This document shows, one piece after another, positions 3,229 through 47,390 of a DNA stretch of 64,000 nt; positions within the stretch are counted from its first letter, which is position 1, and every line of letters begins with the position of its first letter. Position numbers and translations under genes: made by a program. Below the pieces are notes generated by a model. The model saw only the letters and a program-made list of their open reading frames with translations, was not told the DNA's origin and did no database searches. This DNA is from Klebsiella phage vB_KM5a1-KLB31. The stretch lies in the sequence record PP582757.1; one strand, given 5' to 3'.

Positions 3229-4152
3229 ATGGCTACTGAATCTTACAACCCTAAACAGCTCAAGGACGCCATCTTGCGCCGCCTGGGCGCACCAATAGTA
3301 AATATTGAAGTTACTACTGACCAAGTATACGATTGCATCCAGCGCGCTCTAGAGCTATACGGTGAGTACCATTATGATGGGTTCAATAAAAACTATTTGG
3401 CTTTCCATATTGGCGATGACGATTTAGCTCGTGACCTAGTATTCGATCTTTCGGATAAACGAGTTTTTGCTGTTACACAAATTATTCGTACTAATGTTGG
3501 TTCATTAACTTCAATGGACGGGCAAGCAACTTATCCATGGTTCACCGATTTCGTATTAGGCCTGGCAGGTATTAATGGCGGCATGGGCTCTTCATGTAAT
3601 ACTTTTGGTCCTAATGCCTTTGGTGCTGATTTGTCTTATTTTACCCAGTTAATGCAATATCGTTCTATGATGCAGGACATCATGACTCCATTGCCTGATT
3701 ATTGGTATAATGACGACACAGGACAATTAAAAGTAATGGGTAACCTTCGTAAAGGTGACGTTCTTATAATTGAAGTTTACACTCAAAGTTTTGTTGATGT
3801 TGATGCTATGGCCGGCGGTATTGCTGGGTATGGTTATGCAGGCGTGCCTAAAGATAATTGGTCATTAAGTGATCGTTATGACGACCCATATCGCACTATG
3901 CCAGGTATTCGTGCTGGCGAAACGACTCAGCCAAAACAAGGCGCATATAATAACCGTTGGGTTAAAGATTATGCTACAGCACTTGTTAAAGAAGTGAACG
4001 GTAATATTTTAGCCAGACACCAAGGTATGCAATTGCCTGGTGGCGTGACTGTTGACGGTATGCGGTTAATTGAAGAGGCTCGAATGGAAAAAGAAAGACT
4101 CCGTGACGAACTCGATCTTTTAGACCCACCATTTGGTATTCTGGTAGGTTAA
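3229..4152 (+). CDS. 13: Neck protein gp13
   Basis: 307 aa (T4 gp13 is 309 aa). Synteny wac-13-14. Confidence 0.8.
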
Positions 4153-4153
4153 T

Positions 4154-4924
4154 ATGGCTACTTATGATTCAAGTTTATTTGCCAAGTTAGAAAATGACAC
4201 AGGCTATAATAAGACAAACGAAAGTGAAATACTCAATCCTTACGTAAACTTTAACAACTATCAAAACACTCAGACTTTAGCCGATGTTATTGTTGCTGAA
4301 AGTATTCAGATGCGTGGAATTGAAATGTATTACATTCCACGTCAGTTTGTTAAACCTGATATTATTTTTGGTGAAGACCCTCAATCTAAATTTGACAAGG
4401 CCTGGAAGTTTGCGGCTTATCTTGATAGCTTTGATGGTTATTCCGGTGACAATACCTATTTCAGTAAATTCGGTATGATGGTCAATGACGAAGTTACGTT
4501 AACCATTAACCCTAATCTGTTCAAGCACCAAACAAATGGTAAAGAACCTATTGCCGGTGACTTGGTTTATTTCCCTATGGATAACAGTTTGTTCGAAATA
4601 AACTGGGTCCAACCATATGACCCGTTCTATCAGATGGGTCAGAACGCCATGCGTAAAATAACGGCTACTAAGTTCGTTTACTCTGGCGAAGAACTTAAAC
4701 CAGAGCTTCAGCGAAATGAAGGAATTAACATTCCTGAGTTCAGCGAACTCGACTTGATGCCTGTTCAGAATATCGATGGTTTGGCTGATATCGATAATGA
4801 CCAGTATGCAGAAAGTAAAGCTTTCAATGATGAAGCGGAAACATTTGTTGAACCGTATATTGTTATCAATGGCCGAGGTCGAGAAGCTCCTAAAGGTCCT
4901 TTTGATGATGATTTCATGTCATAA
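4154..4924 (+). CDS. 14: Neck protein gp14
   Basis: 256 aa, the same length as T4 gp14. Start is 2 nt after the gp13 stop. Confidence 0.8.
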
Positions 4925-4937
4925 ATAAAGCATATAA

Positions 4938-4957
4938 CAGCCCGGTTTCCCGGGCTT
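4938..4957 (+). other. GC hairpin (AGCCCGG-TTTC-CCGGGCT) in the 5' leader of gene 15, downstream of a CATAAATA late-promoter-like box at 4920-4927
   Basis: Perfect 7-bp stem. Sits between the promoter-like box and the GGAGAAA Shine-Dalgarno of gene 15. Confidence 0.4.
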
Positions 4958-4967
4958 AGGAGAAATA

Positions 4968-5833
4968 ATGTTTGGACATTGGTACAATTCGTCTTTACGC
5001 CGCTATATCGTGTTAATGGGTGATTTGTTTTCCCATGTTCAAATTGCACGCCAGCGTTCAGACGGTGAAAGATATATTAAGGTGCCTATTACATACGCAT
5101 CTAAAGAACATTTCATGGCACAGATTAATAAGTGGACGGCTATTCAAAACCTTCCTCCAGACCCTAATCAGTGTTCAAAAGAAGAATACATGACGGCTAA
5201 GGCTAAAATAGAAACGGTTCTTCCTCGTATGAACCTTCATTTAGTCGATATGATGTACAACTCACAATATAAAACATCTATCCAAAACCGTACTTTGGCC
5301 CAGTATCAAAATGGTGACCCACGTAAACCTATTTCACAGTTTGCGCCAGTCCCAATGAAAATGATTTTTGAATTAGGCATTCATACTCGTAATCAAGATG
5401 ACATGTTCCAGATTATCGAACAGATTATGCCTTATTTCCAGCCACACTTTAATACAACAATAACGGAAATCTATACGAATGAAATCAAGTTCGAACGTGA
5501 TGTCCGTATCGTATTTCAGTCTTTGGCAATGGATGAACAAGTAGAAGGCGATAATATTTCTCGTCGTAGACTTGAATGGTCTGTTATGTTCGAAGTTAAT
5601 GGATGGTTATACCCGCCAGTTTCAGATTTGAATGGCGAGATTCGAACTGTTTATTTGGATTTCTTTGCCAACAGTAAAGAATTGAATCCGGAAGGTAATT
5701 TTGAATCGGTTGACACTGAAGTAGTTCCAAGAGATGTTGAAGAAGAAGATTGGGACGGAACTTCTAAACAAACTTATTCTCATGACATTCCTATTCCGGT
5801 TGACCCTAACCCACCTGGCCCTAGAGGTACATA

Positions 5834-5834: not shown

Positions 5835-8156
<2,322 letters not shown>

Positions 8157-10816: not shown

Positions 10817-12394
10817 ATGGCAGCATTTAATAATAACATACTAAGTATTTTTGCTCCGTGGGCAAAAGCCGACGAGCTTGAATACAAAGAACAATTAAAC
10901 AACGATTTAGAGTCCATCACGGCGCCGAAGTTAGATGATGGAGCTCGTGAAGTCGAAGCTCAAGAACGTGATGTCCCATATAACGCGTTGATGCAACAGA
11001 TGTTCGGTACTAATGAACCGTTCATGAAAAATACGCGTGAACTTATCGACACGTATCGTAATTTAATGAATAACTACGAAGTTGATAACGCTGTTGCAAA
11101 CATTGTTTCTGATGCTATCGTCTATGAAGATGACCATGATGTGGTTTCATTAAATCTTGACGGTACCAAGTTTAGTCAAAATATTAAAGATAAAATTCTT
11201 GAAGAGTTCGGTGATGTTTTAAATTGCCTGAACTTCCAACGTAAAGGCACCGACCATTTCCAACGTTGGTATGTTGATTCACGAATCTTCTTCCATAAGA
11301 TTATTAACGTGAACAAACCAAAAGAAGGTATTCAAGAACTTCGTCGTTTAGACCCACGTCAATTACAGTTCGTTCGTGAAGTTGTTACTAAAAACGAAGC
11401 TGGCGTAAAAATTGTAGAAGGATATCGTGAATATTTCATCTATGATACTGGTCTAGAAAGTTATTCGTGTGATGGGCGTATTTACGAAGCCGGAACAAAA
11501 ATTAAAATTCCACGGGCTGCAATCGTATATGCTCATTCAGGTTTGTTATCATGTTGTGGTAAGAACATTATTGGTTATTTGCATCGTGCAATTAAACCAG
11601 CAAACCAGTTAAAATTAATGGAAGATGCGTTAGTCATCTACCGTATTACCCGTGCTCCTGACCGTCGTGTATTCTACATTGATACCGGCAACATGCCTTC
11701 ACGTAAGGCCGCAGCACACATGCAACATATTATGAACACGATGAAAAACCGTGTCGTATATGATGCCACGACAGGTAAAATTAAAAACCAGCAACACAAT
11801 ATGTCTATGACTGAAGACTATTGGCTGCAGCGTCGTGATGGTAAAGCAGTTACCGAAGTTGATACCATGCCTGGTGCTACTGGTATGTCGGATATGGACG
11901 ACGTTCGTTATTTCCGCCAGTGCTTATATCGTGCTCTGCGTATTCCTGAATCACGTATTCCTAGTGACCAGAACAGCGGTGTAATGTTCGATGCAGGTAC
12001 AACTGTTTCACGTGATGAACTTCAGTTTGCTAAATGGATTCGTCAGCTTCAAAACAAATTTGAGGAAATATTCCTCGACCCTCTGAAAACCAACTTAATT
12101 CTGAAGAAAATCATCACAGAAGATGAGTGGAATGAAGAGATAAATAATATTAAAGTTGTGTTTAACCGTGATAGCTATTTCAGCGAAATGAAAGATGCCG
12201 AAATCATGGAACGCAGAATCAATATGCTAACAATGGCCGAGCCGTTTATCGGTAAGTACATTTCCCATAATACAGCTATGAAGGATTTCCTTCAGATGTC
12301 TGATGAGGAAATTAACCAAGAAGCTAAGCAAATTGAATTAGAGTCCGATGAGGCTCGTTTCCAAAACCCAGACGAAGAAGAAGAGGAATTCTAA
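10817..12394 (+). CDS. 20: Portal vertex protein gp20
   Basis: 525 aa (T4 gp20 is 524 aa). Position between genes 19 and 67. Confidence 0.95.
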
Positions 12395-25276: not shown

Positions 25277-26460
25277 GTAAGACTATTCAACGTGAAGGTT
25301 ATCCTAATATAAGCATCAAACTTTATCAAGACTATGATGCTTGGCTTGAACACCGATTTGTCGAGTTGGCTGCAACCTTTACTACATTAACAATGCGTGA
25401 TGGCCTTTACGGTCGCAATGAAGGCCTTCTTCAGTTTTATGATGCAAAGAACCTTCACACTAAAATGGATGGCGAACAGATTATTCAAATATCCGTAGGT
25501 AACGCTAATACTCAGCGTACTCAAACCAGGATATATGGATGCAAACACTTTTCAGTGAGTGTTGACTCTAAAGGTGATAACATAATCACAATCCAATTGG
25601 CAACCATTCATTCATTAGAAGATTTGAAGTTTAGTCGGATGTTCTTCCCTAGTGTTCAAGAAACACTGACAGAAATGATTGGTGTGATTTATCAAGACAG
25701 ACCTTTGATAGCTCCTCCTATAAATGGAATAAACGTTTATGTTCCTAACGTTCCATGGTGTGACAATATAAACCAATACATGAGCTTTGTTCGTGATATG
25801 GGTCTCGCCGTTGATTCAGACAAATTCGTATTTGTCTGGGAAGATATCGACGGGATTGAAATCATGGATTACGAAATGATGATAGCCCAAGAGCCTATTA
25901 ATTTCGTCGTCGGTGAACCACGACTCATTGGTCAATATGTTCAGGACCTTGAAACTCCTATTGCTTTTGATTTTGAATGGCTTGTAAAAGCTAACCAACA
26001 TTCACGTAAGCCGTATGAGAACGCTACTGTGTATGCACATAGTTTTCTTGATAAAAGTGCTACACGAGTTACATTTGGTGAAGGACAAAACAGTATTCTG
26101 GTTTCTCGCTCCGGTGCTTATTCTGAAGCAACATATCGAAATGGTTTTGAAGAGGCCCAACGATTAATTACTATGACACAATATGATGGGTATGCTCATT
26201 GTAAGACGTTTGGTAATTTTGAATTGACTCCTGGCGATAAGATTAACTTCTATGACCCTAAGAACCAATTCCAGTACGATTTTTACGTAGATGAAGTTAT
26301 TCACGAGATGAGTAACAACACGTCTATAACGAACTTATACATGTTTACAAACGGCAAGGCAATTAAAGTCGAAGAGCCGCCTAAGGTTAAAAATGAACTT
26401 AAAACTTATTCTCCCGATCAAGAAAATAACGATGAAGGGGAAGACGGTCAGTCTTCCTAA
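25273..26460 (+). CDS. 27: Baseplate hub subunit gp27
   Basis: 395 aa. [49 protein letters not shown] resembles the T4 gp27 N-terminus. Confidence 0.85.
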
Positions 26461-26917
26461 GCTTGGTCTTAAACACCACAATATGGTAAAAGATGAGAAG
26501 AACCCCTTAGTGGCTCTTAAAACTATAATGAATTCGATTCATCCTGGATTGAATGCAGCCGAAACCGACTTCATTAGTTTGCATCTTTTAGAATTCAATA
26601 ACAAATTAAAAAGTGAAGTCACTAAAGATGGGTTCACTTATAAATTAGACGATGTTTATATTTGCCAAAGGCTTGAGTTCCAATTTGGTGGTAAAGAATA
26701 CAAGTTTCGTTCACATGAGCCATTTGAACAATTTGGTCCTGTTGATGACGTACTGAAAACTCTTTATCTTGGTGATGATATACCAGATTTTCTGGATATG
26801 CCGGCCTTTGTTTCTAAATGGGCCGACGACATAACTAGCACAGTAGCTATTCCAGGTCCTAATGGTCCTATTAAAGGAATGCTCCAGATTATGGACCTAT
26901 TAAATGAAGAAAAATAA
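26393..26917 (+). CDS. 28: Baseplate hub distal subunit gp28 (start uncertain: 26393 or 26432)
   Basis: 174 aa from 26393 (T4 gp28 is 177 aa). Overlaps the gene 27 end. Confidence 0.65.
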
Positions 26918-28670
26918 TTCCGAATCACAGAGCTTCCGTCGTAAGAAGCTCATTGAAGATATGGCGCCTCAACGTCGTGCTGAGGCCCTGGCGTCTTCTC
27001 AAAATGAAGAGCTAAGTAACATTGCCGATCAGATGAAAGACGCCCAGGCGGCGTCTGAGATGACTGCAGAGGCTATTGAGAACAAAGGCAACCAGATTAT
27101 AGGTTCTTTGAATAATCTGGATAAAAGCATTAAAGACGTAGTCGCCGGTACGGAAATAACGTCCGAAGCAGTAGAACGTGTAGCCGTTAATACCCAAGCA
27201 ACGACCGGAGCAGCAAGAGCAATTTCCGCAAAGATTTCTAAGCTGACCGATATGCTTGCGGAGAAATTGTCTAGTGAGGTTAAAAAATCTCCTAGCACTC
27301 AAGAAACAACCACTTTAGCCGCTCTTCAAGAAGCTATGCCTATTCAGGTTGAACAACCTAAATTGGAAGAACTTATAGCTCAATTGATACCACAAGGTCC
27401 TATTCCAGAAGATGCCCCTTTCTTACCACCTCCGACGACTCCACAGGAAGAAACGGAAAATAAGAAAGACAAGGATAAAAAGACCGATGATGCCGGCTTT
27501 AAAATGGATGACCTCCTTAAAATAACTAAAGGCGGTTTTAAGGCTGTTGTTTCTGTTTCTGATAAAATTGCTAGTATGCTTTTCAAATATACTGTGACGG
27601 CTTTAGCTAATGCAGCTAAATTTGCTGCCCAGATGTTTGCATTAGTCCTTGGTATCGACATGATTCAAGTCTACTTCCAGTATTTCATGAAGCAATTTGA
27701 AGCCGGATGGAAAGACTTCAATGACAAATTCAAGGAATGGGGACCAATTCTAGAAGGCTTAATGACCTTTGCTAAAAATGCCCAGACGATGTTCAGTGAG
27801 AAAAACTGGATTGGATTGGCTACTGCAATAGTTAAAGGAATGGTATCGCTGACAGAAAATATGGCAAATCTTTTAATGTTAGGCATCGGCAAATTAACTG
27901 CCGCCATGCTCCGTGCATTAGGTTTTAATGATGCAGCCGATAATGTTGAAGGTTCATCTTTAATGACGTATCAGCAGAAAACTGGTGCCACATTAGATGA
28001 CCAGGACCAGACAACTTTGGCTAAATACCAAGACCGTAAAGATGCTGAAGCATTTGAAGCTAAAAAGGACATGGACAAACGCTTTAAAGGTAAAGACAAA
28101 GGACTTGCCGTAGCCGAGCAATACGGAACTGTTTCAAAAGAAACAGCCGAAGAAATTCGTTCAGGTGGAATCGATTCTACATTCCGTGATATGCCAGAAG
28201 AGCAACGTCTCGACATAATCAAAAAGCGTAATAATGCCCAGGCTGATATTATTCGTCTGACTAAAACGGCCGAAGATATTATGAAGCCTGATGCAGTCGA
28301 TAAGAAAAATGCTAAAGAGTCTTATGATGATATTCAAAAACAACTTAATGACCCTGCATTAAAGGCCGCTCCTAAAGATTTAAATATGGAACAGCTTATC
28401 GATAAAATGAACAAATCACTTGAGAAATTTAATGACCAACCGGCATTAAAACCTCAGCCGATAGAACAACGTGAAGAAACCCAACAGGCTAAACGCGTTG
28501 ATGAAGGTTTGAAAGCTAAAGCTTCTTCAGTAAATACTCCGGCTGGTACAGGTTTACAAAATCTGGTCCAGCAAGTGAACGTTCAGAAAAATAGTAAAAC
28601 CCAGTACAACGTGCCACCACAATCAGCTACACCTGCTCCTGGTATGCACGGTGCTACTCGAGTTAATTAA
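26904..28670 (+). CDS. 29: Baseplate hub / tail-length determinator gp29
   Basis: 588 aa (T4 gp29 is 590 aa). Position 28-29-48. Confidence 0.8.
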   Translation: MKKNNSESQSFRRKKLIEDMAPQRRAEALASSQNEELSNIADQMKDAQAASEMTAEAIENKGNQIIGSLNNLDKSIKDVVAGTEITSEAVERVAVNTQATTGAARAISAKISKLTDMLAEKLSSEVKKSPSTQETTTLAALQEAMPIQVEQPKLEELIAQLIPQGPIPEDAPFLPPPTTPQEETENKKDKDKKTDDAGFKMDDLLKITKGGFKAVVSVSDKIASMLFKYTVTALANAAKFAAQMFALVLGIDMIQVYFQYFMKQFEAGWKDFNDKFKEWGPILEGLMTFAKNAQTMFSEKNWIGLATAIVKGMVSLTENMANLLMLGIGKLTAAMLRALGFNDAADNVEGSSLMTYQQKTGATLDDQDQTTLAKYQDRKDAEAFEAKKDMDKRFKGKDKGLAVAEQYGTVSKETAEEIRSGGIDSTFRDMPEEQRLDIIKKRNNAQADIIRLTKTAEDIMKPDAVDKKNAKESYDDIQKQLNDPALKAAPKDLNMEQLIDKMNKSLEKFNDQPALKPQPIEQREETQQAKRVDEGLKAKASSVNTPAGTGLQNLVQQVNVQKNSKTQYNVPPQSATPAPGMHGATRVN

Positions 28671-40451: not shown

Positions 40452-40688
40452 TCAGTCCTTCAATACAGTTCGGATTTTATGAGCACCTCGTTCTCTTAAG
40501 ACTTTTAAGAGTTTAAGGCATTTGTTTTTACGGTCTTTAACATAGCTTGGGTCTTCAGAGTCAACCCAATCGGTCGTATAAAGAGTCTTCCATTTAGAGA
40601 AGAATCCTTCTTTATATTCTACGGCGAAGCAAACATTGACTGCGCCATATGAACTCAGACCGGTGGTTTCGATAATACGTGATTTCAT
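40452..40688 (-). CDS. Hypothetical protein (31.2 position)
   Basis: 78 aa ORF. ATGA-coupled to cd. Confidence 0.5.
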   Translation of the reverse strand: MKSRIIETTGLSSYGAVNVCFAVEYKEGFFSKWKTLYTTDWVDSEDPSYVKDRKNKCLKLLKVLRERGAHKIRTVLKD

Positions 40689-41239
40689 TATTCACCACAG
40701 AAATTACGAATGTTTTCCCAGTTCAGCGAACGGAGATTATTACGCTGATACTCAACCACTTCAATTCCGGCTTCAAGTAGAATATCAGCCCAATTGTCAG
40801 GAGAACGGTCATAACGCTCTGCGTAAACGACTTTCTTAATACCTGACTGAGAAATAGCCTTAGTACATTCAGGACAAGGAGACGCCGTACAGTACAACGT
40901 AGCACCTTCAATTGAAGAGCCTTTACGTGCTGCAAACAGAATGGCATTCAGTTCGGCATGGATTTCATTTTTAGAAGACCATTCGCTATGAGCCGGACGA
41001 TGTTCTTTGGCCAGGACTTTTAAGACACCAAAGCCACGATGAATTGGATAATCGACTTCTTTAATCCAACCTTGTTCTTCGGCATGGTCACAGCAGTTAG
41101 TTCCGCCGGCCGGAGAACCATTATAACCGGTAGAAATGATACGGCCATCTTTTTCGATAACTGCACCTACTTTCCAGGAACAGCATTTTGATTCTTGCGA
41201 TATCAGGTAAGCAATTTGTAAGTAAGTGCTAGCTTTCAT
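40688..41239 (-). CDS. cd: dCMP deaminase
   Basis: 183 aa. Zinc-binding deaminase motifs CCDHAEEQ (HxE) and CTASPCPEC (PCxxC). Confidence 0.9.
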   Translation of the reverse strand: MKASTYLQIAYLISQESKCCSWKVGAVIEKDGRIISTGYNGSPAGGTNCCDHAEEQGWIKEVDYPIHRGFGVLKVLAKEHRPAHSEWSSKNEIHAELNAILFAARKGSSIEGATLYCTASPCPECTKAISQSGIKKVVYAERYDRSPDNWADILLEAGIEVVEYQRNNLRSLNWENIRNFCGE

Positions 41240-42235
41240 TTAAATAGCCTTTTGATTAATATAAGACAGAAGCTCTTCAGTATGTTCCCAACCAATACAG
41301 GCATCTGTAATAGAAACACCATAGAGCATATTATCAGAAATCTTTTGATTTCCTTCATGTAGATTAGATTCTATCATAATACCTTTGACAAAGGCGTTAT
41401 CTGCTACCAATCTGCCAACATGAAGTTGATTTGAGAAATAACCGGTCGCATTAGCATGACTACAGTCAACCATAACGTTATGATTAAGACTTTGAGCTGA
41501 AGCAGCAACTACGGCTTCATTAATATCGGACTCTGAATAATTAGGTCCTTCACTACCACCACGCAATACGATATGGGTATTAACATTGCCTTCGGCATGA
41601 ACGATACCTACTTTACCATCATGGTCCATACCCATATAACGATGCGGATACGCCGCAGAAAGAATTGCATCAGTAGCAACCTTAACAGAACCATTTGTTC
41701 CATTTTTAAAGCCAACGCACATAGGCAGGCCTGAAGCAATTTCACGGTGAGTCTGGCTCTCGGTTGTACGAGCACCGATTGCGACCCAAGAGAAAATACC
41801 TGTAAGATACTTAATCGTGAATGGGTCTAACACTTCAGTCGCTAGTGGCAGGCCTAAGCTTAATAGTTCTAAGCAAAGTTCACGAGCCATTTCGAGCCCA
41901 CGGTTTATGTCAAATGAGCCATTCAATTCTGGGTCATTAATGAAACCTTTCCAACCTACAGTTGTTCTTGGTTTCTCAAAATAAACACGCATAACCAAAA
42001 GAAGATTTGGAAATTGTTTTTGTACTTCGGCTAAACGTTCACCGTATTCGAGAGCAGCTTTAGGGTCATGAATTGAACAAGGGCCTACAACAATAATTTT
42101 GCGTGGGTCTTCGCCATTCATAATCGAATTTACTTGTTCACGATGAGCAGCAACTTGTTTTTCAAGTGCCACCGTCAAAGGATATGTTTCAACCAATGTT
42201 TTTGGAGAAATTAGTGATTCGACTAATGGTAGCAT
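41240..42235 (-). CDS. 3-deoxy-D-arabino-heptulosonate-7-phosphate (DAHP) synthase, class I alpha (AroG/AroF/AroH-like)
   Basis: 331 aa. IIVVGPCSIHDP, MRVYFEKPRTTVGWKGFINDP, IGARTTESQTHREIASGL, GFKNGTNGS and VSITDACIGWE are near-identical to the E. coli AroG core motifs. Confidence 0.85.
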   Translation of the reverse strand: MLPLVESLISPKTLVETYPLTVALEKQVAAHREQVNSIMNGEDPRKIIVVGPCSIHDPKAALEYGERLAEVQKQFPNLLLVMRVYFEKPRTTVGWKGFINDPELNGSFDINRGLEMARELCLELLSLGLPLATEVLDPFTIKYLTGIFSWVAIGARTTESQTHREIASGLPMCVGFKNGTNGSVKVATDAILSAAYPHRYMGMDHDGKVGIVHAEGNVNTHIVLRGGSEGPNYSESDINEAVVAASAQSLNHNVMVDCSHANATGYFSNQLHVGRLVADNAFVKGIMIESNLHEGNQKISDNMLYGVSITDACIGWEHTEELLSYINQKAI

Positions 42236-42244
42236 TATTTTACC

Positions 42245-42496
42245 TTAATTTTTATAAACGGAAACCGATTCTACTCGACCATCCATATGTCTAACGATAT
42301 TATAATATTCTTCTGAATAAGCAAGAGTATCTTTTTCGCCTTTTTCAATGGTAATCAAATATGAAACAGGACTTTCTTGTTGAACGCGCACTTTTACGTC
42401 ATCACGTCGTTCAGAGATTTTATTAATCAGGGCCTGAGCAAACTGAGGGATTGCTGCGGCGAATTCTTCGATAGAAAACTGTTTATCTGAAATCAT
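42245..42496 (-). CDS. Hypothetical protein
   Basis: 83 aa ORF. ATGA-coupled within the cd-pseT accessory cassette. Confidence 0.4.
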   Translation of the reverse strand: MISDKQFSIEEFAAAIPQFAQALINKISERRDDVKVRVQQESPVSYLITIEKGEKDTLAYSEEYYNIVRHMDGRVESVSVYKN

Positions 42497-42771
42497 GCTA
42501 CGGCCACCTGTACTGAATTAGCATCATAGTCCACTGTAACAAAAACATACAGCGGTTCGGTATCGCCACAATCAATTTCTACTTCGCAAGTAGAAACAAA
42601 AGAAGTATGATTAATAGATACTTTCTGAACATCAGGAGCCAGAATAGCTAGTGCGCCAGTTACTTCAGCATGAACTTTAAGTTCGCCCGGGACATCACGT
42701 TTAGTCAGGCAATGATTACCAAGGACCTGACGGAATACCATACTTACTAATTCAGAATATTTAGGGAACAT
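42493..42771 (-). CDS. Hypothetical protein
   Basis: 92 aa ORF in the cd-pseT accessory cassette. Confidence 0.4.
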   Translation of the reverse strand: MFPKYSELVSMVFRQVLGNHCLTKRDVPGELKVHAEVTGALAILAPDVQKVSINHTSFVSTCEVEIDCGDTEPLYVFVTVDYDANSVQVAVA

Positions 42772-42781
42772 TTTGTTTTCC

Positions 42782-43030
42782 TCAATGGACAGTGTGAACT
42801 ACGACACGAACAACGAATGCTACTACAGGGTCGTTGATTGGTGGGAACTCAACGTAATATTCTCCCTGATAGCGTTTGTTCAGGTCAGTACGGATTTCAG
42901 CAATAGCATTAATCAACGCAGGGTTGAATACTGCACCTTGGAGCTTACGAAGCATTTTATAGGCTTCTTGCTCGACTTCATGATGTTTATCGTACATATC
43001 ATTTTCCTCATATGACCGGAAGTGCATCAT
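42782..43030 (-). CDS. Hypothetical protein
   Basis: 82 aa. First gene after the early promoter at 43018-43060. AGGAAAATGAT Shine-Dalgarno then ATG. Confidence 0.4.
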   Translation of the reverse strand: MMHFRSYEENDMYDKHHEVEQEAYKMLRKLQGAVFNPALINAIAEIRTDLNKRYQGEYYVEFPPINDPVVAFVVRVVVHTVH

Positions 43031-43057
43031 ATCACATACTTCCGGCGTTGTAAACAG

Positions 43058-43060
<3 letters not shown>
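43018..43060 (-). promoter_or_regulatory. Early promoter with the -10 inside an 8-bp perfect palindrome
   Basis: rc: GTTTACAacgCCGGAAGTatgtgaTATGATgcACTTCCGGtcatATGAGGAA. Confidence 0.5.
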
Positions 43061-44117
<1,057 letters not shown>

Positions 44118-46983: not shown

Positions 46984-47390
46984 TTAACCTTATGTTGTGT
47001 ATTCCACGGTGGATTGAAGAGCTTGATAAACATTGGCTCTTCCAAGTCAGTAGTAGAAACTGACATTGTTCCAAGCTCGTTTGTCATTGATAGGTTAAAA
47101 CACTGACGTGCATAGAACTCTACCTTTTTACCAGATATTAACGCATCGTATATTGCAGCAGATTTAATCGAATCACTATTTTGCATTGTCCGATTAATGC
47201 TTGTTCTATAATAGTTTATTCGTTTACGTAAGTTTTTAGTTTTCCCGATGTACATTAACTCTTCATCGACGGCGATAGCGTAAATAACATTTTGCTTATT
47301 CGGTACCGTAAGAGTTTGGATTGTGCAATCGTCATTGAGCTCTAATGTAACATACTTTATAAACGAATATTCATTTGCTATAGCTTGCAT
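46980..47390 (-). CDS. denA: Endonuclease II (GIY-YIG family)
   Basis: 136 aa, the same length as T4 EndoII. EYSFIKY, NVIYAIAVDEELMYIGKTKNLRKRINYYR (GIY-YIG), and KVEFYARQCFNLSMTNELGTM are near-identical to T4. Confidence 0.9.
   Translation of the reverse strand: MQAIANEYSFIKYVTLELNDDCTIQTLTVPNKQNVIYAIAVDEELMYIGKTKNLRKRINYYRTSINRTMQNSDSIKSAAIYDALISGKKVEFYARQCFNLSMTNELGTMSVSTTDLEEPMFIKLFNPPWNTQHKVK

Follow-up and report, generated by a model that had tools for sequence, protein, structure and literature searches.

DAHP synthase (DAHP being the 7-phosphate of 3-deoxy-D-arabino-heptulosonate), abbreviated DAHPS or DAH7PS, controls entry to the chorismate pathway, and chorismate mutase (CM) makes prephenate. 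In type I-alpha DAHP synthases, the family of E. coli AroF, AroG and AroH, the allosteric machinery consists of an N-terminal extension together with a β-hairpin, and the first 14 residues form a flexible allosteric region (PMC4735112). In AroG the inhibitor is bound through its main chain by Q151 and S180; the substitutions P150L and D146N make AroG fully Phe-resistant, and S180F, L175D and F209A/S also confer resistance (PMC9529685). A naturally unregulated DAHP synthase, P. aeruginosa PA1901/PhzC, serves a dedicated phenazine pathway (PMC6435475). Prephenate itself is needed by two Peptidase_U32 (U32) proteins, TrhP and RlhA, for the C5-hydroxylation of tRNA uridine-34 and of 23S rRNA C2501, respectively, a need shown both genetically and by feeding (PMC6599085). 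Here we describe a DAHP synthase gene in a 64,000-nucleotide stretch (the window) from Klebsiella phage vB_KM5a1-KLB31 (PP582757.1). The gene falls in a clade confined to phages, in which the inhibitor site is rebuilt, and it occurs almost always in genomes that also carry a U32 gene.

The open reading frame (ORF) encodes a true type I-alpha DAHP synthase, its active site intact. It scores 261 bits against Pfam PF00793 (DAHP_synth_1; E 9e-78, cutoff 25.5), 433 bits against the NCBIfam aroFGH equivalog TIGR00034 (cutoff 173) and 456 bits against NF009395 (cutoff 343). Its scores against the AroG equivalog NF006723 (375 bits, cutoff 568) and the AroH equivalog NF009396 (393 bits, cutoff 463) are below the cutoffs. 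Among solved structures E. coli AroF (6AGM) gives the best sequence match (E 1e-105), ahead of N. meningitidis DAH7PS and E. coli AroG. The match to phrog_5045 (E 4.8e-174) places residues 1–330 on profile positions 8–337 of 341. A sequence-only reading of the window had quoted four family motifs at near-identity to E. coli AroG. Three of them are exact, GPCSIHDP at residue 51, MRVYFEKPRTTVGWKG at 82 and GARTTESQTHREIASGL at 154, and the fourth reads VSITDACIGWE, not KSITDACIGWE. The near-identity holds inside the motifs only: over the whole protein, pairwise identity is 51% to AroF, 48% to AroG and 46% to AroH. When KDO8P (3-deoxy-D-manno-octulosonate 8-phosphate) synthases were sought among the NCBIfam, Protein Data Bank (PDB) and fold matches none was found; all significant matches were DAHP synthases, and the KPRT motif is present.

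Active-site residues were checked in an alignment with AroG, AroF and AroH and in a 128-sequence alignment (AroG numbering is used below). All 29 short-form proteins of the phage clade, the window protein included, keep the metal ligands C61, H268, E302 and D326. The same is true of the residues that bind phosphoenolpyruvate (PEP) and erythrose-4-phosphate (E4P): R92, K97, P98, R99 and T100 (KPRT, 97–100), G163, A164, R165, K186 and R234. An AlphaFold model made with 54 sequences has a mean pLDDT (predicted local distance difference test) of 94.3 and a pTM (predicted template modelling score) of 0.93. It matches the solved type I-alpha structures from N. meningitidis and E. coli with template modelling (TM) scores of 0.94–0.96 and a root-mean-square deviation of 1.3–1.6 Å, and is predicted to be a (β/α)8 barrel with an internal β-hairpin (strands 198–203 and 209–214). 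The sequence-only reading had named a KDO8P synthase or an inactive paralogue as the outcome that would undo its assignment. Both are rejected by the family and structure matches and by the invariant catalytic residues, and its identification of a phage-encoded class I-alpha DAHP synthase is borne out by family scores, catalytic residues and model alike.

The gene is also maintained. The pairwise ratio of nonsynonymous to synonymous substitution rates (dN/dS) is 0.04 between the window and phage PEi20 and 0.16 between the window and phage Entb_45, more distant pairs being saturated at synonymous sites; at these values we rejected a decayed or unused gene. Its GC content is 0.40, and 0.27 at third codon positions (GC3), like the rest of the window. 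Recent capture from a host was rejected as well, on the basis of this GC3 against 0.50–0.57 in E. coli aroF, aroG and aroH, of a best bacterial-genome match of 52% identity that is not enterobacterial, and of the monophyly and long stem of the phage forms. Taken together, intact residues, the structural model, purifying selection and phage-like composition indicate that the gene is functional and old in phages.

We compared the 120 best homologues from a collection of 5.8 billion proteins. The top 24 are 319–343 residues long; the rest, with 49–56% identity, span 332–385 residues, all but one of them having at least 341. In a neighbour-joining tree the 29 short forms were monophyletic in 30 of 30 bootstraps. 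Phage contigs carry the deepest short-form members, one of which is once more placed between pseT and cd, and the sister protein of the clade is cellular, in an ordinary bacterial neighbourhood. In bacteria and archaea (one genome each from 185,579 species) no match exceeded 52% identity, and the nearest cellular matches come from Verrucomicrobia, Kiritimatiellales, Chlorobium and assorted Gammaproteobacteria, which are not hosts. The phylogeny that the sequence-only reading had called for to find the donor lineage and subtype returns a phage-only clade, nearest to AroF-type enzymes (Gly at position 211) and not AroG-like.

The short forms differ from cellular enzymes where inhibitors act. They are without about 8–10 N-terminal residues: all 24 of those in the top 120 have 8–12 residues before AroG position 19, and the cellular matches tallied have at least 16. 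We then called a position discriminating if one residue was present in at least 90% of 21 non-redundant phage sequences and another in at least 80% of 99 cellular sequences. Five of 332 positions qualified (P150I, Q151K, S180P, F209Y and T223A), and four of the five (150, 151, 180 and 209) are among 13 published inhibitor-contact or feedback-resistance positions (hypergeometric p = 7e-6). In the 99 cellular relatives S180 and F209 are 100% conserved and P150 and Q151 94–97%. The phage copies also have Gly in place of D155, which forms a stabilising salt bridge, and Ile at position 175. The combination of a full N-terminal extension with a P150/Q151/S180/F209 inhibitor site is absent from the window protein. 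With its N-terminal lid missing and P150I, Q151K, S180P and F209Y fixed, the phage enzyme is most likely insensitive to Phe, Tyr and Trp, the usual binding of which has probably been lost. The residues at this site back the earlier suggestion that the phage copy may bypass host allosteric control.

More distant viral DAHP synthases were also inspected. One, at 4001–5050 of our extracts L105 and L106 (IMG/VR contigs of 262 kb and 26.6 kb), is 48% identical to the window protein. It has S180P and F209Y together with P150 and a 16-residue N-terminus, an intermediate-looking form, and its neighbours encode a eukaryotic-type topoisomerase IB, a NUDIX protein and a thymidylate kinase. Another, on L107 (41% identity, cell-like residues), stands beside a fused type II topoisomerase, a neighbour that hints at giant viruses. 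We set these distant forms (L105–L108) aside as uninformative here, given their giant-virus-like contexts with no CM or U32 gene within 4 kb.

The gene and its reading as an auxiliary metabolic gene (AMG) are already on record. Between 40000 and 44500 the window DNA is ~97% identical to Edwardsiella phages PEi20 and PEi26 (Kanagawavirus, Straboviridae), and the PEi20 orthologue, a protein 99% identical, is annotated as phospho-2-dehydro-3-deoxyheptonate aldolase. A tblastn search found DAHPS homologues in 212 phage records, most of them annotated as DAHP synthase already; the main groups are Mosigvirus (~77% identity), Winklervirus (68%), Klebsiella phages of the Marfa/F48 type (66%) and Proteus Bragavirus (59%). 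phrog_5045 is labelled DAHP synthase in the category 'moron, auxiliary metabolic gene and host takeover', a 2025 paper treats the KLB31 gene as an AMG for aromatic amino acids (PMC11845039), and the phiC120 genome paper lists a DAHPS gene. The AMG claim of the sequence-only reading thus holds for a known family, not as a new observation. Labels are uneven among sister phages: the PEi26 copy (AP014715.1, 138556–139548) is a 'conserved hypothetical protein', and several Mosigvirus records also call theirs hypothetical. In limited full-text searching we found no paper tying DAHPS to U32 or CM, and an earlier description may exist; the link of the three genes is not mentioned in the RB69, LC53 and KLB31 papers. 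The rebuilt inhibitor site and the association of DAHPS with CM and U32 were not met in the literature reached, and are findings at the level of a variant of a known gene.

The companion genes lie at a second locus. Between gene 42 (dCMP hydroxymethylase) and gene 43 of PEi20, a Pfam scan identified a Peptidase_U32 protein (389 aa), an NTP-transferase (559 aa) and a SIS-domain arabinose-5-phosphate isomerase. A 79-aa ORF between gene 42 and the U32 gene is an AroQ chorismate mutase, with 42 bits against CM_2 (cutoff 27). Its counterparts in Entb_45 and LC53 score 40.9 and 44.6 bits against the same cutoff, adjoin Peptidase_U32 and had already been labelled chorismate mutase by the GenBank annotators. 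The locus spans 25733–27138 in PEi20 (AP014714.1; L111), 3643–5051 in L115 and 6001–7511 in L113. More widely, T4-like phages of several genera have an AroQ CM of 79–114 aa and a divergent U32 protein of ~389 aa between gene 42 and the arabinose-nucleotide genes. In the phage CMs R11, R28, K39, E52 and S84 (PheA numbering) are invariant and Q88 is present, residues that we take to be those of the active site of the E. coli enzyme; D48 and R51 are not conserved. Among PHROG families the CM is phrog_10027 ('unknown function') and the U32 protein phrog_5757 ('peptidase'). The PEi20 annotation includes no other shikimate gene, and a Pfam scan of its ten largest hypothetical ORFs found none; no downstream Phe, Tyr, Trp or para-aminobenzoate (pABA) gene is annotated there either. 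The phage U32 proteins have a conserved C-terminal motif, CANEVCGSTCTYC (CX5CX3CX2C), at residues ~340–352 in PEi20 (L111 25972–27138, minus strand). The motif is absent from E. coli TrhP, UbiU and UbiV and may bind an extra iron-sulfur cluster.

Searched separately, DAHPS was found in 212 records and U32 in 221, and a fused DAHPS and U32 query returned 242. Both genes are thus present in 191 records, DAHPS alone in 21 and U32 alone in 30. Seventeen of the 21 DAHPS-only records fell under 60% identity, and the sample taken from them, a Salmonella contig, Acinetobacter MD-2021a, Aeromonas HJ05 and faecal contigs, comes from cell-like or other lineages. At least one of the remaining four, at 60–80% identity, is partial (CEV1, 22.9 kb). 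About 191 of 195 records with the short-form DAHPS therefore also have U32, more than 100 kb away. RB69, Yersinia phages, PM2, moha and others have U32 without DAHPS. This asymmetry is as expected if DAHPS is an optional booster of a function centred on U32.

Closely related phages differ at both loci together. The order in Entb_45 is gene 42, CM, U32, a hypothetical gene, NTP-transferase and SIS isomerase, and in ZX14 it is gene 42, the hypothetical gene, NTP-transferase and SIS isomerase. With gene coordinates otherwise identical, ZX14 is without exactly CM and U32 there and without exactly DAHPS at the other locus. In ZX14 the cd.2 gene abuts cd, and in Entb_45 and the window DAHPS stands between them, a gene-sized presence/absence difference. 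IME523, Q7622 and Kosakonia 305 share the ZX14 pattern, with U32 absent as judged by coverage and listed features. Synonymous divergence in cd is 0.46 between Entb_45 and ZX14 and 0.75 between Entb_45 and the window; since the Entb_45 gene is nearer to that of ZX14, presence and absence do not follow a single deep split. All four phages of the ZX14 type retain gene 42, NTP-transferase and SIS isomerase without U32, so the arabinose route does not need U32. We also rejected a role of DAHPS in the sugar route to arabinosyl-hydroxymethylcytosine (ara-hmC): these phages keep that set of genes without DAHPS, CM or U32, and RB69, a published ara-hmC phage, has U32 and no DAHPS match.

The phage U32 subfamily has ~200 metagenomic relatives at 48–58% identity. 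In one unrelated, phage-like contig family, represented by three assemblies (L123–L125; we read contigs of 50.7, 107 and 12.9 kb, and a 204-kb one is also recorded), the U32 gene (phrog_5757) directly follows a gene for a protein with DAHP_synth_1 and CM_2 domains, a DAHPS-CM fusion. Within 9 kb 3' of U32 are genes for dehydroquinate (DHQ) synthase, shikimate kinase, a fusion of type II dehydroquinase (DHQase-II) with EPSP (5-enolpyruvylshikimate-3-phosphate) synthase, chorismate synthase and shikimate dehydrogenase. The cluster thus covers all seven shikimate steps and chorismate mutase, and no prephenate-consuming enzyme (dehydratase, dehydrogenase or aminotransferase) was seen in the 21 kb examined. 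The same stretch encodes a homing endonuclease, a thymidylate-kinase-like protein (phrog_761) and an arabinose-5-phosphate isomerase (phrog_5670); phrog_761, phrog_5670, phrog_5757 and phrog_10027 are all families of the PEi20 cluster. In a separate lineage, then, a different type of DAHPS, fused to CM, has come to accompany this U32 subfamily, which argues for function and not ancestry. Three gene calls on L124, at 3395–4900(-), 6248–7435(-) and 11169–12170(+), contain in-frame stops under the standard code (nine in one gene), and on the near-identical L123 these stretches are called as short fragments; the lineage may have reassigned a stop codon. On a 466-kb, megaphage-like JGI contig (L120 6447–8086), U32 directly follows dCMP deaminase, with thymidylate kinase, uracil-DNA glycosylase and a PolIII alpha subunit nearby.

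We propose that phage DAHPS, whose expression probably falls in the early or middle period along with that of the nucleotide-metabolism genes around cd and pseT, would convert PEP and E4P to DAHP and so push carbon into the host shikimate pathway whatever the level of aromatic amino acids. Host AroB through AroC would carry this carbon to chorismate, and the phage AroQ CM, where present, would turn it into prephenate for the phage U32 enzyme, encoded beside dCMP hydroxymethylase and the arabinose-nucleotide genes. Aromatic amino acids are probably not the main purpose. That the deregulated DAHPS is a prephenate supply line for U32 is the reading we prefer, and we give it an even chance of being right. 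A wider proposal is more tentative: DAHPS, AroQ CM and U32 might form one two-locus module, a phage route to prephenate free of feedback, that drives a prephenate-dependent, O2-independent C5-hydroxylation of pyrimidines, in DNA precursors or in DNA/RNA, linked to the hydroxymethylcytosine/arabinose hypermodification cluster. Were it true, DAHPS would be a cofactor-supply gene for nucleic-acid modification and not an amino-acid AMG, and the existence of phage-like genomes with the entire shikimate pathway around U32 would be explained.

Several points weigh against the supply-line reading. In the window itself CM and U32 have no local match, and their presence in KLB31 is extrapolated from PEi20 and PEi26. 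Mosigviruses are the largest group with DAHPS, and no chorismate mutase is recognisable in Mosigvirus JS09, so that the CM domains of host PheA and TyrA would have to supply the prephenate. The phage U32 protein is divergent: its PF01136 match (45 bits, cutoff 22.4) covers profile positions 2–65 only, it scores 18 bits against the UbiU equivalog (cutoff 440), and a sequence search against solved structures gave no match. The Glu equivalent to TrhP E162 is conserved and is followed by cysteines (EFC...HC...SC) whose alignment with C170 and C177 is ambiguous. Closely related genomes dominate the co-occurrence counts and independent events are few, with one clear within-genus co-loss and several losses of DAHPS alone. 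The viral nature of L123–L125 is itself inferred, and full-text literature searching of limited extent found no enzymology of a phage DAHPS. Finally, the changed inhibitor-site residues are strictly conserved in phages, which is compatible, too, with a new effector or with a protein partner. At the position of the CM gene JS09 has a 53-aa ORF like RB69 ORF049c and a spacer of ~120 nt (L118 2955–3237), with no detectable similarity to CM; this may be what is left of a gene or its replacement.

The textbook role of the enzyme offers another purpose, in which DAHPS, regulated or not, would raise chorismate for the Phe, Tyr and Trp that a burst of phage protein synthesis consumes, or for folate or quinones, and the tie to U32 and CM would reflect shared ancestry. 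The phrog_5045 category and the role proposed in PMC11845039 fit this account, as do a gene placed among early nucleotide-metabolism genes with td and frd 10–12 kb off, and the Mosigviruses without a recognisable CM. It is also among the purposes that the sequence-only reading had put forward, with folate supplied through td and frd. It leaves unexplained why the short form so rarely occurs without U32 when U32 occurs alone in 30 records, why two unlinked loci are absent together in ZX14-type Kanagawaviruses, and why L123–L125 assemble a whole pathway and CM around the same U32 subfamily with nothing in the 21 kb examined to consume prephenate; nor does PEi20 have an annotated downstream gene that such a purpose would use. 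We regard it as possible and rather unlikely. In our judgement, enzyme identity and feedback escape were read rightly from the sequence at the outset, novelty was overstated and purpose was probably mis-assigned.

Two further readings concern the enzyme itself. Because the new residues are invariant across phage genera whose proteins are 57–86% identical, the site appears to be under constraint, not in decay, and could serve a new ligand or protein partner: the pocket of I150, K151, P180, Y209 and G155 might bind prephenate, chorismate or a nucleotide, or dock the phage CM. Lys151 and Tyr209 add polar groups, L123–L125 carry DAHPS-CM fusions, and among its NCBIfam matches the phage CM has in second place the high-GC/archaeal monofunctional CM family, which we take to include the M. 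tuberculosis CM that is activated by binding DAHPS. This new form of control seems improbable to us, as the N-terminal segment that closes the type I-alpha pocket is missing, Mosigviruses share the pocket without a recognisable CM, and we know of no CM complex for a type I-alpha DAHPS. Least probable by far is a protein that is not a working DAHPS, being an inactive paralogue or acting on another substrate, for example arabinose-5-phosphate in the manner of a KDO8P synthase. The same phages do encode an arabinose-5-phosphate isomerase, and E. coli DAHPS accepts five-carbon sugar phosphates poorly. Set against this are the invariant catalytic and E4P-binding residues, KPRT among them, the top family and structure matches, all of them DAHP synthases, the strong purifying selection, and the ZX14-type phages, which keep the isomerase without DAHPS.

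The neighbourhood of the gene is given in Table 1. DAHPS lies between cd and pseT, as the sequence-only reading placed it, at the position of T4 cd.1; pseT.1–pseT.3, which that reading had included in the slot, are on the far side of pseT. It was right that the gene is co-oriented with its early/middle neighbours, all on the minus strand and tightly packed. The frd and td genes that it called adjacent are ~10–12 kb away by synteny with PEi20 and are therefore not adjacent. PEi20, JS09, Marfa, X20, Pm5461 and a T4-like metagenomic contig (L011) all have the DAHPS slot, and it is conserved in at least five genera. The TAA stop of DAHPS abuts the ATG of cd (TAAATG), a junction consistent with co-transcription of the two genes and possibly with coupled translation; the junction with cd.2, TTAAGGTAAAATAATG, is also conserved in Entb_45.

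Table 1. Coordinates of features around the phage DAHPS gene and of the metagenomic shikimate/U32 cluster
Feature	Sequence	Coordinates	Strand	Details
cd (dCMP deaminase)	window	40688..41239	-	PF00383 E 8e-28; PEi20 annotation
Phage short-form type I-alpha DAHP synthase, coding sequence	window	41240..42235	-	331 aa; ATG start; stop codon 41240-41242; ORF listing
AAGG, Shine-Dalgarno-like	window	42243..42246	-	8 nt 5' of DAHPS ATG; overlaps stop of cd.2 homologue
cd.2 homologue (DUF7320)	window	42245..42496	-	PF24005 E 1e-31; directly upstream of DAHPS
Candidate MotA-box-like middle promoter	window	42297..42323	-	TGCTTAT, 12 nt, TATAAT; 62-88 nt upstream of DAHPS start, inside cd.2
cd.3 homologue (DUF7355)	window	42493..42771	-	PF24051 E 2e-25; PEi20 annotation; same transcription unit
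Small ORF between cd.3 homologue and pseT	window	42782-43030
Candidate sigma-70/T4-early-type promoter	window	43026..43054	-	TTTACA, 17 nt, TG-n-TATGAT; gap between pseT and small ORF
pseT (polynucleotide kinase/phosphatase)	window	43058..43957	-	PF25109 + PF13671; upstream boundary of pseT...cd slot
Shikimate/U32 cluster	L123	9068-19311		metagenomic contig
Shikimate/U32 cluster	L124	8957-19311		metagenomic contig
Shikimate/U32 cluster	L125	4052-12928		metagenomic contig

The early-type promoter candidate matches the consensus at 10 of 12 positions, with an extended -10, and is a possible start of a transcript that includes DAHPS; in the consensus scan the regional total of such sites was not above the shuffle expectation. 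The MotA-like candidate is weak. It recurs at the same offset in PEi20 and Entb_45 and not in ZX14 or other genera, it lies within coding sequence, and one match is about what the regex scan would return by chance. Neither candidate is above chance or broadly conserved, and both were set aside. A terminator-like hairpin with a T-rich tail inside the DAHPS coding sequence (41881–41902, minus strand) is probably a chance occurrence, the regional count being equal to the shuffle expectation. Elsewhere in PEi20, denA (endonuclease II; AP014714.1 144510–144716, about window 47015–47221 by synteny) is annotated as 207 nt, ~68 aa. We assume the T4 protein to be much longer, in which case the PEi20 gene may be truncated or mis-called.

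What the gene would mean depends on which of these properties holds. Natural feedback insensitivity would make it a ready-made deregulated entry enzyme of practical use in producing aromatic compounds, and a clear case in which a virus takes a point of metabolic control away from its host. A tie to CM and U32 would change the purpose of this AMG: it would hint at a prephenate-dependent step, so far unrecognised, in the nucleic-acid chemistry of phages, and would give a function to two widespread genes without an informative PHROG label (phrog_5757 and phrog_10027).

Compared with known DAHP synthases, the phage form shares family, fold and active site with E. coli AroF, AroG and AroH, and has the Gly of AroF-type enzymes at AroG position 211. 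Unlike them it is phage-only, is shortened at the N-terminus, has two short deletions in the C-terminal third, and has P150I, Q151K, S180P, F209Y, T223A and D155G fixed. Engineered or selected feedback-resistant enzymes (AroG P150L, S180F, D146N, L175D and F209A/S, and variants of AroF and of C. glutamicum AroF) are altered in the same places, at positions 150, 151, 180, 209 and 175 and in the N-terminal element (PMC9529685); work of this kind was reportedly also done by Zhang et al. in 2014. Unlike these variants, the phage enzymes are a natural lineage in which several changes were fixed together and have long been conserved, Ile, Lys, Pro and Tyr are not the residues used in the laboratory, and the resistance is a predicted one. 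PA1901/PhzC offers a functional parallel, as an extra DAHPS without allosteric elements and with a dedicated downstream pathway, here a proposed one. PA1901/PhzC is a type II enzyme encoded inside its cluster, whereas the phage enzyme is type I-alpha and encoded more than 100 kb from its proposed partners.

The first shikimate step is coupled to CM in B. subtilis AroA(Q), in the type I-beta fusions of Prevotella and Porphyromonas and in the M. tuberculosis DAHPS-CM complex, as we suggest for the phages. Unlike in those fusions and complexes, the genes of the T4-like phages are separate and distant, and the DAHPS is type I-alpha. UbiU and UbiV, also U32 proteins, act in anaerobic ubiquinone synthesis. 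Like TrhP, which makes 5-hydroxyuridine (ho5U34) in tRNA, and RlhA, which makes 5-hydroxycytidine (ho5C2501) in 23S rRNA, the phage companion is a Peptidase_U32 protein; its essential Glu is conserved and its gene adjoins CM. It differs from TrhP, RlhA, UbiU and UbiV in its divergent sequence (phrog_5757), in its extra CX5CX3CX2C motif and in its place among genes for DNA precursors and arabinose nucleotides.

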